From the NCBI GenBank assembly GCA_963921275.4, contig OZ001293.3:1184001-1248000 (forward strand): a stretch of DNA of 64,000 nucleotides. The letters are read 5' to 3'. Positions 2,725 through 8,048 of the stretch are shown here, in pieces. A program made the position numbers and the translations under genes. The number at the start of each line of letters is the position of its first letter. Position 1 is the first letter of the stretch. Source of the DNA: an uncultured Hormoscilla sp. Its GTDB lineage: Bacteria > Cyanobacteriota > Cyanobacteriia > Cyanobacteriales > Desertifilaceae. The notes below the pieces were generated by a model. It was not told the origin of the DNA. It saw only the letters and a program-made list of their open reading frames with translations, and did no database searches.

Positions 2725-3367
2725 TCCTCCTCAATAATCTAGCTGGATTCCCTATCAATATTTGACCGTCTGGCACATCCTTAACCACAACTGCACCCGC
2801 ACCGATCGCAGAACCCTTTCCTACTTTAATTAATTGACGGATCGCGGCACCGATACCAATATGAGTATTATCGCTAACATGTACAGCACCAGCCAGTCTA
2901 GCACCTGTAGTGATATGAACGTGGTTTCCGATAACGCAATCGTGTTCGACGATCGCCCCACTATTTACAATGACGTTCTCGCCCACGATCGCGCCCGCGT
3001 TAATTATTGCACCAGCCATAACAGTTGCCCCTTCTCCTAAAACTGCTGAAGGTGAAATAATAGCACTAGGATGAACGGCTGTCACGGGTTTCATACCCAG
3101 GCTGCGGGCAAACTCATACAGCCGTCGGCGTGGGACAATATTGGATGTACTCCCCAATCCAACAAAAAAATACTCAACCCCTTGGGCTTTAATCGAAGGG
3201 AGCCGATCGTCATCGCCCAAGATCGGCACGCCAAGTAAGGACTTACCCTGTAATTCTGGGTTTGGATCGAGCAGACCCACCAACTTGTACTGACTAGATT
3301 GTTGAAGAATCTCGATCGCCACTTTGGCGTGCCCTCCTGCGCCCAAGCCAATGACTTCTGGAGACAT
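2702..3367 (-). CDS. NeuD/PglB-family sugar acetyltransferase
   Basis: GAGGHAK, hexapeptide repeats, VEHDC, GAGAVV...GNPAR; probable ATG at 3367. Confidence 0.88.
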   Translation of the reverse strand: MSPEVIGLGAGGHAKVAIEILQQSSQYKLVGLLDPNPELQGKSLLGVPILGDDDRLPSIKAQGVEYFFVGLGSTSNIVPRRRLYEFARSLGMKPVTAVHPSAIISPSAVLGEGATVMAGAIINAGAIVGENVIVNSGAIVEHDCVIGNHVHITTGARLAGAVHVSDNTHIGIGAAIRQLIKVGKGSAIGAGAVVVKDVPDGQILIGNPARLLRRNEHDGFD

Positions 3368-4037
3368 TAATCCACCTCCCGAATTAGCATAAATGCCTCT
3401 GCATAGTCCACCCCAATGCTTGCCCCACGATAGCGAGCCAACGCCCGAATTGCCGACGGTCCGCGAGGCCAAGGATCTGAGTGAGTCTCGCTCTCATATA
3501 ACCCCATAATTTCGACCTTTTGCTCGATGTAGGGCGTAATGTCGCGGTAAACATTGGGAACAAACGCGCGATCGGGCTGCGGTGGGGCTGCTTCAGTCGA
3601 AGAAAGGGTTTCATAAGAAAGGACGCGCCGCACCCCCCATTTACGCATATAAAATGTCTTCAGCACGGACATCGTAGCCTTGAAAACGACGGCATGATCG
3701 GAATTCACATCACCACCATGAACCAGATAAACTACTTCTGGCTTAACCTCTTGGATGACATCCCGAATGCGGCCAATCAGATCGGCCAGTGGAATTGTGT
3801 CAAGACGAATGGTTGGGAATCCCAACTTAAAAAACTGCTGCATTTTATAGGCCATCGAGGCGATCGCATTACTTCAGCGGCCTTAACCTGAATCGTCTCC
3901 GCCGACCACTGCGGCTCGTATGTCTCCGTCACCACCAGCCAGAACAAGCTGTCCTCTTCTGCGACATGTCCCAGCAACGTCCCCCCACAACCGAGGGTCT
4001 CGTCGTCAGGGTGAGGAGAAATCGCGAGTACTTTCAT
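3367..4037 (-). pseudogene. PIG-L family deacetylase, frameshifted
   Basis: MKVLAISPHPDDETLGCGG in one frame and HGGDVNSDH...ALARYRG...AEAF in another; shift near the HIP1 site at about 3860. Confidence 0.82.
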
Positions 4038-4825
4038 GCAGGTCCTCCTATACCAGACCATTTGTCAATCGTCCAAGATAGTTGACCCCCATCAATAATG
4101 ATTGACTGACCGATGAGAAATGATGCCTCATCAGAGGCGAGAAAAGCAAACAAATTCGCCACCTCCTCAGGATTTCCAGAACGACCGAGTGGTATCTTAT
4201 TGGGATATTCCCGCACAAAGGTATCGCCTGCACCTGATTGTTTTGTGAGATCCGTGATAATAAAACCGGGCGAAACGCAATTAACTCTGATATTATAGGG
4301 TGCTAACTCAGCGGCCATCGTCTTGGTAAGCAAAACAACCCCCGCTTTAGAAGCATTGTACGCCGCCGATTCTCTCTCTGCCACATGACCATTGGTCGAT
4401 CCCATATTAATAATCGCGCCTCCTTTGCCTTGTGCCATCAACACCCGCGCCACCTGCTGTCCCAACAAAAAAGTCCCCTTCAGATTCACTGCCATCACTC
4501 TATCCCAAGCCGACTCAGAGTGTTCGAGAAAGGGCTCGATCGCCACTATACCAGCATTGTTGACTAGCACATCGATCTCACCAAAGTATTCCGCTGCCTG
4601 CTTGACCAGGGCCTCACAAAACGCGCGATCGGAAACATCACCGGTCATCCCATAAACCTCACCACCCCACTGACTCAACTCTGCAGCCGCCACCACAATC
4701 CGCTCTGGTACAAGATCGCAAATCAGGAGCTTCGCGCCCTCTTGCAAAAACTTCTGGGCAATTGCCTTACCTATACCACGTCCCGCCCCAGTGACGATCG
4801 CACTTTTTTCTTTTAATCGCAACAT
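4034..4825 (-). CDS. Short-chain dehydrogenase/reductase (FabG-like)
   Basis: TGAGRGIG, NNAG, YNASK, IRVNCVSPG. Confidence 0.9.
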   Translation of the reverse strand: MLRLKEKSAIVTGAGRGIGKAIAQKFLQEGAKLLICDLVPERIVVAAAELSQWGGEVYGMTGDVSDRAFCEALVKQAAEYFGEIDVLVNNAGIVAIEPFLEHSESAWDRVMAVNLKGTFLLGQQVARVLMAQGKGGAIINMGSTNGHVAERESAAYNASKAGVVLLTKTMAAELAPYNIRVNCVSPGFIITDLTKQSGAGDTFVREYPNKIPLGRSGNPEEVANLFAFLASDEASFLIGQSIIIDGGQLSWTIDKWSGIGGPA

Positions 4826-4827
4826 GA

Positions 4828-5678
4828 ATTAGGGGTCGAACTGGGGGTCACCCCCCAACCCTCCCATTCGGAACCGGACATGCGACTTTCACCGCATCCG
4901 GCTACTGGGAAGTAGGGCCTTGTCATTGCTAGGATTACTGGGGATTACTCCCGTTGTCCCTCATCTCGTGTGATTTCTCCCCTTTCCTGGTTGGTAAGTG
5001 GCGCTGCCAGATAACCTTTAGTATTACCATTTTCAAGTCTGTTTTACCAGTCATCCCACCTCAGCTACGCGAGGTATTGGGGCTTGTTAGAGATACTTTT
5101 GCCCAAGATTTCCTACTTTCACCAACCCGCGTCTGCATGTTGAGGCATCCTTACCTATTCCTCAACGTATCCATAGGCATTACCCTAGGCATTAGCTTCT
5201 CGGGCTATCTCTCCCCCCGTGGCTTACGCTTTACATCTAACTAGTCCAAATGAGGACAGCACACGAGAGGTTACTTCGTTCCCTGGTATCATTTCGCGAT
5301 GCTTTTAGGTTCCTGCTTTCCTCCGGGAGTTCTTTGAGCACGATGCTGGCAAGCAGATACTACCAGCACTAACTACCATTTCCCTTTTGGGCCAGCGTAT
5401 AAGCCTTATTCCGCTGGTTCGGTGTAACGAAGTTTACACAGGTTTGCCTGCTCTAACCTTGAGCATCTTTCCTAGCGGCGTCACTGGCTTAGGCTGCCAG
5501 CTATCCTACATTTAAGTCCTTGCTTCGCACCACAGCGATGTGACTCTATAGCACTAAGGACCGGTGTTACCCCCGTACCTGGGGAGAGGGAATTTAACCC
5601 CCATGAATACCAGAGTTACCAGTTTGGACCTGGCCTAGTGTTCCGTATTTGACTACGTTAGACTAGAACGAATCGCAC
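4828..5678 (-). mobile_element. ORF-less group II intron, about 851 nt
   Basis: 5' GTGCGATTCGTT at 5678; domain V AGCCGGATGCGGTGAAAGTCGCATGTCCGGTTC; domain VI hairpin ending CGACCCCTAAT; no RT ORF inside; co-linear with 32686-33601. The 3' boundary is uncertain by 1 nt. Confidence 0.9.
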
Positions 5679-5834
5679 AACTACCACTCCGTTAAGCTGT
5701 GAGGCATTTAGATTGCATAGTCCAAAATGGCCATGATGCCTGAAACACATATGGTGATGGACCTCCACGATTTTGCCTATATCCCAATATGTAGTTTAGA
5801 TGCGCGGTGGTCTGTGTCGGTCGCTTCACCCCAT

Positions 5835-8048
5835 TCACCCTTTAACTATGGCGCCAAAATCTGCTAACACGCGAGCATGATTTCGCAGTAACCCCAGCAA
5901 ATTCAGGCGGTTGCGCCGAATTTCCGGGTTCTTATCCATCACTAAAACGCTGTCTTCGCCGTCTAAGAAACGACTTACGAAGGGCGTTATTTCACTCAAG
6001 GCATCCACTAATTGCTGATAATTTCGCGTCGATGTCTCTCGGGTAGTGCGACTAGCGCTCCCGAGAGATATCGACGCTTGCGATGCCTGGGTTTTGGGCA
6101 GTAACTCTACTATGGCATTAAGGAATGCTTGTTCTGAAGATTTCTCAAACAGTTCGGGATTGACAAACCCTTTCGGTTCCAACTGGACTGTATCTAAATC
6201 CCCTTGGGCAGCTAAACGGGTGGAACGGTTCACGGTTTCGTAAATTGCATCTAATTGGCCGTTATTGCGGATTGCTTGCAGGAATAAGGCCCGATCGCGC
6301 AGGTCGAGCAAATCCTGCAATGCCCGATCGGCATATTCTGGGTCATTTTCCCCCAGCACAGCATTGACTAGATCGTAATCTATGCCCCGTTCCTCTTGCA
6401 ACTGGGTGCGGAGGCGTTGCAGGAAAAATTCTTGCAATGAGGCAATTAATTCTGATTTCGATGTGCGAGGCGTAGTGCGAGTAGCGCTCGCCGAGTACAT
6501 CGAATGGGCTATTTCTGTCAGCAGTTGCTGTAGGTTAATCCCTAAATTCCCTGCCCAAGTAATGTTCACGATCGCATTAGCGGCCCGCCGCAGGGCGAAG
6601 GGGTCTGACGAACCCGTGGGCACCATGCCCAAGCTGAAGATACTTACCAAGGTATCTAGTCTATCTGCTAACCCGACCACTTGACCCGCGATCGTCTGGG
6701 GCAATTTATCTCCTTTGCCTCGAAGGGGCAAGTAATGTTCAAAAATCGCCGTCGCGACTGCTTCTGGTTCCTGACTGGCGCGAGCATATTGCCTTCCCAT
6801 CACCCCTTGCAATTCGGGAAACTCGTACACCATCTGGGTTACCAAGTCCGCTTTACAGAGTAATGCTGCCCTTGCGATCGTACTGGTTTCTGCTGCCGAC
6901 AGTTGCAACTGTTGGGCAATTTTCAGGGCAATCTTACTCAGGCGCGAGACCTTTAACCGTACCGACTCCAAATCTTCCTGAAAGGTAACTTTTTCCAGTT
7001 GAGGCAAATAGCTTTCCAGGGGTTGGGCCAGATCTGCTTTATAGAAGAACTGGGCATCTGCTAATCTGGCGCGGATGACCCGTTCGTTCCCAGCGGCGAT
7101 AATATCTGATGAGGCTGGGTCTCCATTACTAACGGTGATAAAATAGGGGAGGAGTTCCCCAGTTCCCTGGTTTTTCAACACCGGAAAATACCGTTGGTGC
7201 TTCACCATGACCGTGGTGCTGACTTCGGCAGGCAACTGCAAAAACTCCGGGTCAAATTTCCCTACTACTGCGGTTGGGTATTCGACCAAGTTAGTGACTT
7301 CCTGCAATAATGCGGGGGATATTTCGGCATAACCATTCACTTTTTGGGCCGCCGCTTCCACGTCCTGTTTGATTTTAGCCTGACGCTGGGTCGGGTCAAC
7401 TTCTATATAGGCAGCACCCAGGCATTCGACATAATCACCTGCCTGGGGAATGGTCACGGGTTCGGGATGCAATACCCGATGACCCCTAGAGAGGCGATCG
7501 CTCTTCACGGTTTCGCTGCCATTTTCCCACATCAGGGGCAGCACCCGGTCGTCCAACAAAGTCACCAACCAGCGGATGGGGCGAGGAAAGCGCAAATCTC
7601 CATCGGCCCAGCGCATGAACCGCCTCCCCTCCAAGGCAAAAATCCATTGAGGGACCAGTTCCGTGAGAATTTCGGCAGCAGGGCGTCCTGCCTTTTGCTT
7701 GCGCAGGAAGATAAAATCCCCCTTATCCGTAGGCCGCACTTCCAGGGCCTCTACTGCTACTCCCTGCTTGCGGGCGAACCCTTCTGCTGCTTTCGTGGGT
7801 TTGCCATCCTTGAACGCCGCTTTGGCAGGCGGACCTTTCACCTCTTCTTCCCGGTCCGGTTGCTGGGCAGGCAAATCCTTCAGGAGTAAGGCCAGGCGGC
7901 GGGGTGTGGCGTAAAGTTCCAGGGTCTCTGGGGTTAGGAGTTGGTCCCCTAGGGACTGGGGGAGGCGGTCCCGCCACTGAAGCAAAGCATTATCCAGAAA
8001 ATCTGCTGGTAATTCTTCTGTACCGACTTCTAATAGGAATGTAGGCAT
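5835..8048 (-). CDS. glyS: Glycine--tRNA ligase beta subunit
   Basis: [57 protein letters not shown]. Confidence 0.97.
6028..6075. repeat. 48-bp hairpin element inserted in frame in glyS
   Basis: GTCGATGTCTCTCGGG-TAGTGCGACTAGCGCT-CCCGAGAGATATCGAC; same core at 6457, 17715-17805, 21639, 21713, 58791. Confidence 0.75.
6457..6504. repeat. Second 48-bp hairpin element in frame in glyS
   Basis: TTCGATGTGCGAGGCG-TAGTGCGAGTAGCGCT-CGCCGAGTACATCGAA. Confidence 0.7.

Follow-up and report, generated by a model that had tools for sequence, protein, structure and literature searches.

The region analysed here lies on the minus strand of a 64 kb stretch of DNA (the window), in which the gene for the beta subunit of glycyl-tRNA synthetase (glyS) is followed by a repeat-filled spacer, a group II intron without an ORF, and the first gene of a sugar cluster, which encodes a short-chain dehydrogenase (SDR). 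The SDR gene is followed by a PIG-L family deacetylase gene and by genes for a PglD-like acetyltransferase, a CBS-nucleotidyltransferase and a member of the 4,6-dehydratase family. Together these genes plausibly form a sugar-modification cluster, and the sugar operon that had been described downstream of the intron is thus retained. Coordinates are collected in Table 1.

Table 1. Features of the glyS-SDR region, with positions given in the window and the evidence for each assignment.
Feature	Position	Strand	Evidence
PIG-L family deacetylase gene, in two frames (94 aa and 162 aa)	3367..4061	minus	insertion of 2 nt near 3856-3855 when compared with G002, where the 230-aa gene is intact
SDR gene, 263 aa, first of the sugar cluster	4034..4825	minus	PF13561 (1.9e-69), PF00106 (1.5e-61)
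IBS3 T, first base of the 3' exon	4827	minus	pairs with A361; T also at +1 of the twin site
Group II intron without ORF, IIB-type, 851 nt	4828..5678	minus	GTGCG start, RF00029 match at the 3' end, exact empty sites in G002 and in a contig of run X5, 100% identical twin
Domains V and VI (AGC triad, GAAA loop, unpaired GA with branch A), then 4-nt tail TAAT	4828..4906	minus	Rfam alignment
EBS3 A361	5318	minus	single covarying alignment column
EBS1 ATCTGC (intron positions 321-326)	5353..5358	minus	alignment with subfamily representatives
EBS2 CACCG (intron positions 255-259)	5420..5424	minus	alignment with subfamily representatives
Target site in the 5' exon: IBS2 CGGAG (5691..5687) and IBS1 GTAGTT (5684..5679)	5679..5691	minus	pairing counts
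MITE-like repeat, most of the glyS-SDR spacer	5693..5806	minus	blastn, 16 hits in the host genome (G000) including the present locus
glyS (glycyl-tRNA synthetase beta subunit), upstream of the intron	5835..8048	minus	PF02092 (3.7e-210)

The MITE-like repeat ends 14 nt before the intron. Its copies, which were also found in genomes G001-G004, are mostly bounded by the inverted ends TAAGCTGT...ACAGCTTA, and in G002, too, the right part of the repeat precedes the SDR gene. The start of the SDR protein was checked against homologues from unrelated phyla that are at most 46% identical: among 80 listed loci, the alignments mostly begin at residues 1-4, and in one case at residue 8. These homologues were too distant for a comparison of leaders, were dropped from it and served for the start residue only. 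An in-frame TAA is located at 4831..4829 in the unspliced RNA, and the joined form carries an in-frame TAA in the 5' exon; an N-terminal extension of the SDR protein is therefore ruled out in both forms.

The preliminary description had placed an ORF-less group II intron with an intact-looking domain V and no encoded maturase just before the ATG of the sugar operon, and the sequence, the match to RF00029 and the empty alleles confirm this. The intron begins with GTGCG (5678..5674, minus strand), which fits the consensus GUGYG; the same five bases open all the family copies listed except one, which begins with GTGTG. Its 3' end reads ...CCCCTAAT and is followed by TC and by the ATG at 4825, so that the intron ends 2 nt 5' of the SDR start codon. 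The Rfam model of group II domains V and VI (RF00029) matches the last 79 nt (4906..4828) with 44.5 bits and an E value of 1.8e-05, the gathering score being 40, and no other Rfam family was matched in the 64 kb window at gathering thresholds. In the RF00029 alignment, domain V, which starts at intron position 774, is a 34-nt hairpin with the AGC triad, and in domain VI the bases GA are unpaired before the CCCC strand. No ORF of at least 60 aa was found on the sense strand within 4828..5678; the single ORF inside the intron is antisense (4954..5244, 96 aa). The 5' end, domains V and VI, the EBS-IBS pairs described below and the precise boundaries are all those of a group II intron of the IIB type.

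Both boundaries of the intron are fixed by intron-less alleles, which had been proposed as something to look for in related strains and were found in the congener G002 and in one contig of a metagenome run. In G002 the flanks (95% identical) are joined directly: the minus strand of L053, from 2940 to 2913, reads CTTAACGGAGTGGTAGTTTCATGTTGCG, which is exactly the 5' exon, ending in AACGGAGTGGTAGTT, followed by the 3' exon. The SDR cluster as a whole is 95% identical in G002 over 1428 nt. In the contig, from run X5 (listed as 'DNA?'), 4827 is followed directly by 5679, the 851 nt between them being absent. The occupied allele was recovered from run X1, which covers the locus best, with both intron-exon junctions present and zero differences, and run X6 yielded short, low-depth pieces only. 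The RNA run X18 contains an SDR relative (92% identical) without an intron and no sequence of the present strain. The 3' end that is fixed by the G002 empty site lies 4 nt beyond the CCCC strand, and family copies arranged head to tail (...CCCCATCC, with GTGCG at once thereafter) have the same 3' end. Precise removal of a family copy that is 89% identical to the present intron rebuilds a tRNA-Arg(TCT) gene, which was detected by ARAGORN in the joined form only.

A blastn search of the host genome with the intron gave 663 hits, of which 381 cover domain V and 234 are full length; the full-length copies add up to 199.5 kb. With 234 full-length related copies in the same genome, the observation lies far beyond chance. 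By identity, the full-length copies comprise two at 100% (the present copy and C1:2134479-2135329), two at 89%, 79 at 85-86%, 138 at 76% and 13 at other values from 74 to 83%. The maturase domain GIIM was matched 75 times in the genome, which also contains an intact ORF of 592 aa with RVT_N, RVT_1, GIIM and HNH domains, surrounded by segments that are 66-86% identical to the present intron; a search for RT-encoding relatives, as had been suggested, was therefore successful. When similarity hits to the 5' and 3' parts of the intron were paired, the regions around the reverse-transcriptase ORFs proved to be nested mosaics, and on this account the naming of one cognate maturase was dropped. Given the GIIM matches and the intact ORF, a maturase acting in trans would be easily supplied, and candidates for this role are abundant in the genome.

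Recognition of the target was examined by aligning the intron with representatives of the subfamilies. The large subfamilies have the target consensus AACCTTA..GAGTCT, then A (138 copies), and AAYTAGA..AGTGYA, then A (79 copies). In the EBS1 columns, AGACTC and TGCACT of these two subfamilies align with ATCTGC of the present intron and are the exact complements of the target sequences GAGTCT and AGTGCA; in the EBS2 columns, TAAGG and TCTAG are the complements of the consensus at -13..-9, and the present intron has CACCG. A361 occupies the sole alignment column in which the present intron has A and the four representatives of other subfamilies all have T. The first exon base at +1 is T at both sites of the present variant and mostly A elsewhere (71% and 85% in the two large subfamilies). 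EBS1, EBS2 and EBS3 thus covary with the target consensus across subfamilies. Pairing was counted at 208 of the 209 unique insertion sites, one site being dropped owing to an alignment gap. The means for cognate pairs were 5.21 of 6 for EBS1, 3.72 of 5 for EBS2 and 0.92 of 1 for EBS3, compared with 2.40, 2.34 and 0.82, respectively, when the flanks were taken from copies with a different EBS1.

At the SDR site the EBS/IBS pairing, which had been put forward as a check, amounts to 5 + 4 + 1 pairs (10 of 12), the modal value of the family (78 of the 208 sites). EBS1 and IBS1 form five of six pairs, one of them G-U, with a U-U mismatch at -2, and EBS2 and IBS2 form four of five with an A-A mismatch; the two mismatches could lower the efficiency of splicing at this site. 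The site of the identical twin in prfC reaches 11 of 12, with EBS2 fully paired (5 of 5). The bases GGAG in front of the intron (5690..5687) are four of the five bases of IBS2 (CGGAG), and GGAG is therefore found just upstream of the intron in part because the intron requires it as a target.

The sole identical copy of the intron (G000:C1:2134479-2135329, 0 differences) interrupts prfC in frame and in the sense orientation. The joined exons give an unbroken reading frame through the GTPase motifs of release factor 3 (RF3), and prfC is single-copy, since no other gene of the genome scores above the cut-off for RF3_C. The prfC insertion site is empty in all four congeners. The SDR cluster was found in one of the four (G002) in a search with a threshold of E <= 1e-20, and the intron site is empty there. 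The best matches to the present intron variant in the congeners are 84% identical or less. From the empty congener sites, the 100% identical twin and this ceiling on identity, both insertions are recent and lineage-specific. Recent mobility is also indicated by the two identical copies at different sites, which have matching IBS sequences and are both empty in congeners. Since an identical copy sits in single-copy prfC, we infer that exactly this intron RNA would be spliced in vivo.

The question of whether the position before the start codon is special was approached by joining the flanks of each unique site and recording how far downstream the next sense ORF of at least 100 aa has its first start, sites inside a sense ORF being excluded; 200,000 random positions, scaled per 209, served as the null. 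Seven sites are situated within 60 nt of the next start (at 2, 5, 19, 33, 38, 46 and 47 nt), the SDR locus being the closest. One of the 209 sites falls within 2 nt of the next start (0.36 expected), two within 5 nt (0.73 expected), two within 10 nt (1.34 expected), three within 20 nt (2.61 expected) and seven within 60 nt (7.43 expected). The position of the intron fits chance, in an order-of-magnitude argument that uses crude ORF calls (first start, at least 100 aa) and not curated genes, and no preference of the family for start codons was seen among the 209 unique sites relative to random positions. Among so many insertions, one immediately in front of a start codon is to be expected. Inside long ORFs, 60 of the unique sites were found in the sense and 37 in the antisense orientation, by ORF calls that, in view of shadow ORFs and nested mobile elements, are too crude for selection for spliceability to be deduced from these counts.

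A specialised IIB1 lineage, known from work of 2007, inserts at start or stop codons as a family and carries an insertion of 300-700 nt at the base of domain I, as recounted in the passages of PMC12584367 that were consulted. From the same passages, it has in common with the present intron that an IIB-type intron is located at a translation signal. Membership in this lineage was rejected: with a total length of 851 nt and with EBS2 at 255, EBS1 at 321 and domain V at 774, the intron could not accommodate that extra segment, and the start-codon distances (1/209 within 2 nt, 2/209 within 10 nt) are also at variance with it.

Removal of the intron would yield a leader with GGAG, 10 nt and ATG, identical to that of G002; the geometry given in the preliminary description is thereby borne out. 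A spacing of 10 nt is long for a Shine-Dalgarno sequence, and many cyanobacterial genes are said to have no such sequence. In the unspliced RNA, the 20 nt that precede the ATG contain none of the motifs GGAG, GAGG and AGGA. In the 92% identical SDR relative of run X18, the 17 nt that precede the ATG agree at 13 positions, with CAAG in place of GGAG. The predicted energy needed to open -18..+13 is 12.5 kcal/mol for the unspliced and 8.3 kcal/mol for the spliced RNA, and for -12..+6 the respective values are 6.6 and 7.1 kcal/mol. Thermodynamic folding predicts a moderate penalty and no block for the unspliced RNA, in a model outside which a ribozyme with bound protein falls. A dependence of SDR translation on splicing is plausible.

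With regard to transcription, neither a sigma-70-like promoter (either strand, at the scan threshold) nor a terminator-like site on the minus strand was found in 4700..6000. The leader is possibly transcribed by read-through from glyS. Leaderless transcription was rejected as unsupported; the sequence TAATTC before the ATG is a poor -10 match. On the glyS side, homology stops at about the glyS stop codon in all four congeners, and the upstream neighbours of the SDR cluster differ between the present genome and G002. From this break in homology, the cluster is an accessory block that has a different neighbour in G002, a state that fits relaxed constraint better than tuned control.

The explanation that we regard as quite probable is a recent chance landing of a mobile intron in the SDR leader, from which it is removed by a maturase acting in trans, the intron being a passenger and not an evolved switch. 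An ORF-less IIB-type intron of a family with hundreds of copies in this genome would have landed in the 5' leader of the SDR gene when excised intron RNA, together with the RT/maturase of a protein-coding intron, reverse-spliced into the DNA site. The sequence ..CGGAG..GTAGTT followed by T would have happened to pair with EBS1, EBS2 and EBS3, and the target site would have happened to fall 2 nt before the ATG. The leader would be transcribed, most likely by read-through from glyS or from an upstream promoter, and a maturase of the same kind would then remove the intron and restore exactly the leader of the intron-less allele. Any effect on SDR expression would be a side effect, probably a modest cost set by the efficiency of splicing; the direction of any effect on SDR translation is one that we infer.

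A rather unlikely reading is that this accessory glycan cluster is decaying and no longer under selection in the present strain, the insertion being a mark of the decay or a contribution to it, and that the intron would be tolerated whether spliced or not. It would account for the PIG-L gene, which is split by a 2-nt insertion and intact in G002, for the failure to find the cluster in three of the four congeners at E <= 1e-20, and for the surroundings of the cluster, where upstream neighbours differ between G000 and G002 and the MITE-like repeat abuts. However, the SDR gene and the four other downstream ORFs examined are intact and have strong Pfam matches, and the frameshift itself might stem from an error in the assembly; the stretch that run X1 matches without a difference, 4200..4856, does not extend to 3855. 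Somewhat more doubtful still is the notion that splicing is irrelevant to SDR translation, with the ribosome starting on the unspliced RNA independently of a Shine-Dalgarno sequence, or with a transcript that begins in the 3' part of the intron. Spliced and unspliced RNA are predicted to expose the ATG and the bases close to it to the same extent, the A-rich stretch after the ATG is predicted to be open in the spliced form, and starts of this kind would be in keeping with the many cyanobacterial genes that are said to have no Shine-Dalgarno sequence. Against this, the promoter scan gave no site within the intron at its threshold, and the ribozyme with its maturase would be 2 nt, and the domain VI helix about 6 nt, from the ATG, where they may sterically block the 30S subunit.

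The preliminary description had gone further and suggested a regulatory use of the intron. In its full form, the intron would be a splicing-gated translational switch, GGAG being within 10 nt of the ATG only once the RNA is spliced, so that SDR production would follow the supply of maturase or the folding conditions. The geometry is real, as is the lack of the three Shine-Dalgarno-like motifs before the ATG of the unspliced RNA, and the energies for opening -18..+13 point in this direction; group II splicing can respond to temperature, and there is a precedent for the repositioning of a ribosome-binding site by a group I intron (PMC7293003 and PMC3984707, respectively, as far as these were consulted). 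Nevertheless, we consider such a switch very improbable, and the suggestion was not upheld. The insertion is strain-specific, differs from its twin at 0 positions and is placed as by chance; GGAG belongs to the IBS2 target and is CAAG in the 92% identical relative; opening of -12..+6 is predicted to cost 6.6 kcal/mol unspliced as opposed to 7.1 kcal/mol spliced; no riboswitch or other Rfam sensor family reaches its gathering score in the window; and the second gene of the operon, PIG-L, is frameshifted. Least probable of all the readings is a chance landing that was later co-opted, in which the separation of the sole Shine-Dalgarno-like motif from the ATG and the presence of ribozyme and maturase at the start would gate SDR production, and with it entry into the glycan pathway, by the maturase pool or the folding conditions. 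If this were true, the group I splicing riboswitch would have a counterpart among group II introns.

The proposed recent chance landing of a trans-served intron has close parallels in other bacteria. In the cyanobacterium Thermosynechococcus elongatus, ORF-less introns of the TeI3 type outnumber ORF-containing ones, the families differ in EBS, and they are spliced and mobilised by the maturases of related introns; the introns sit between genes, within genes, in a tRNA gene and, as twintrons, inside other introns (Mohr, Ghanem and Lambowitz 2010, PMC2882425, in the sections consulted). All of these patterns, i.e., the ORF-less majority, the EBS families, the trans maturases and the places of insertion, are seen in the present genome. 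The two differ in number, with 28 introns in T. elongatus according to these sections (PMC2882425) as opposed to 234 full-length ORF-less copies here, and an insertion 2 nt before a start codon, as in the present genome, was not found in the consulted sections of the T. elongatus account. Judged by its sequence, with no ORF of its own, maturase relatives in the genome and signs of recent mobility, the present intron would be a TeI3-like ORF-less intron that is served in trans.

ORF-less introns in dnaN of Trichodesmium erythraeum are spliced by the maturase of the RIR intron, according to the part of PMC12584367 that was available. They resemble the present case in that the introns have no ORF, the maturase is encoded elsewhere and expression of the host gene is tied to it. 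The difference, on the same partial source, is that the Trichodesmium introns break a housekeeping coding sequence, whereas the present intron is located in a 5' leader and changes no codon.

In the c-di-GMP-responsive group I ribozyme of Clostridium difficile, splicing in the 5' UTR sets the ribosome-binding site next to the start codon (PMC3984707, in extract). As portrayed there, that system combines a group I intron with a ligand-sensing aptamer, whereas the present intron belongs to group II and no Rfam sensor is found in the window; the conservation that goes with a riboregulator of the C. difficile type is also not seen, the relatives in G002, X5 and X18 being devoid of the intron. The intron Ll.LtrB provides a cold-sensitive gate on the expression of a relaxase, with splicing efficiency modulating the output of the host gene (PMC7293003, in extract). 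Ll.LtrB is inside a coding region, encodes its own protein and has a role that was measured, on the evidence of that extract, whereas the present intron is known from sequence alone. A limited literature search gave no case in which a group II intron of a bacterium separates a ribosome-binding site from the start codon. ORF-less introns with trans-acting maturases are known, and the intron in the SDR leader is best read as another such case.

The locus itself is of little weight, and the genome around it is more notable. A survey of 2022 put the highest number of group II introns in any one prokaryotic genome at 101, as stated in the portion of PMC8919778 consulted. If the assembly is sound, the present genome, with 234 full-length ORF-less copies and 75 maturase matches, is a case of extreme intron proliferation, and it could serve for the study of how hundreds of introns are dealt with by a single maturase pool. 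Within it, the SDR locus is a clean natural example of an insertion in a leader, with occupied and empty alleles, and a convenient test of the effect of an intron on translation.

Copies of the 851-nt ORF-less group II intron of the window (G000:C1:1184001-1248000) were located in the source genome (G000) by blastn, and the features discussed here are collected in the table. The identical twin of the window intron splits the single-copy gene prfC (release factor 3) in the sense orientation, between GTPase motifs; the same site is empty in all four congeners (G001–G004). In a tRNA-Arg(TCT) gene, a second copy occupies the 3′ edge of the anticodon loop, and ARAGORN detected this tRNA solely after the intron had been removed in silico. 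A further copy, C1:684522 (minus strand), is positioned 5 nt upstream of a candidate GTG start of a putative ORF of at least 100 aa; among the 209 unique insertion sites, only this one and that of the window intron lie no more than 10 nt from a candidate start.

The neighbourhood of the window intron also carries smaller repeats. Most of the leader of the SDR gene (short-chain dehydrogenase, lead gene of the sugar cluster) consists of a MITE-like repeat, both in G000 and in the congener G002; the repeat gave 16 blastn matches in G000 and has copies in each of the four congeners. In the upstream glyS gene, a palindromic repeat supplies 18 additional in-frame codons relative to G002 and is bordered by a repeated CGC (3 nt). 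Many copies of this palindrome (45–50 nt, 80–100 % identity) were found across G000–G004; judged by match lengths, G003 and G004 seem to share the glyS insertion, which G001 and G002 seem to lack. Downstream of the SDR gene, the split of the PIG-L family gene corresponds to a 2-nt insertion in the assembled sequence when compared with the intact 230-aa gene of G002.

Coordinates of repeats, intron copies and the split gene
Feature	Location	Strand	Details
MITE-like repeat, ~115 nt	window 5693-5806	-	inverted ends TAAGCTGT...ACAGCTTA
Palindromic repeat inside glyS	window ~6026-6079	-	54 nt extra vs G002
Split PIG-L family deacetylase gene	window 3367-4061, break near 3855-3856	-	frames of 94 aa + 162 aa
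Identical twin of window intron	G000:C1:2134479-2135329 (locus L001)	+	100% identity
ORF-less copy in tRNA-Arg(TCT) gene	G000:C1:4993857-4994687 (locus L004)	-	89% identity to window intron
Nested/tandem copies, example loci	G000:C1:2406917-2407747, 4451358-4452188, 6406775-6407605		

Across many loci of G000, copies were commonly nested inside other introns or arranged in tandem, some of them head to tail. Members of the 79-copy subfamily (85–86 % identity to the window intron) were repeatedly inserted at a single identical site with the 5′ flank ...AACTATGATGAGCGTA, adjoining reverse-transcriptase ORFs. In the 138-copy subfamily (76 % identity), members were found within domain IV of their own kind.

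Altogether, 234 full-length ORF-less copies were identified in G000 by using the window intron as query, amounting to 199.5 kb or ∼2.8 % of the genome. Domain V was covered by 381 blastn matches, maturase domains gave 75 matches, and RF00029 gave at least 148 matches above the cut-off (148 among the 150 candidates scored, of ∼867). The highest count of group II introns per prokaryotic genome is 101 according to a 2022 survey (PMC8919778), and no figure above 101 per genome was found among the later papers listed. If the assembly is sound, the group II intron load of this Hormoscilla genome is extreme.
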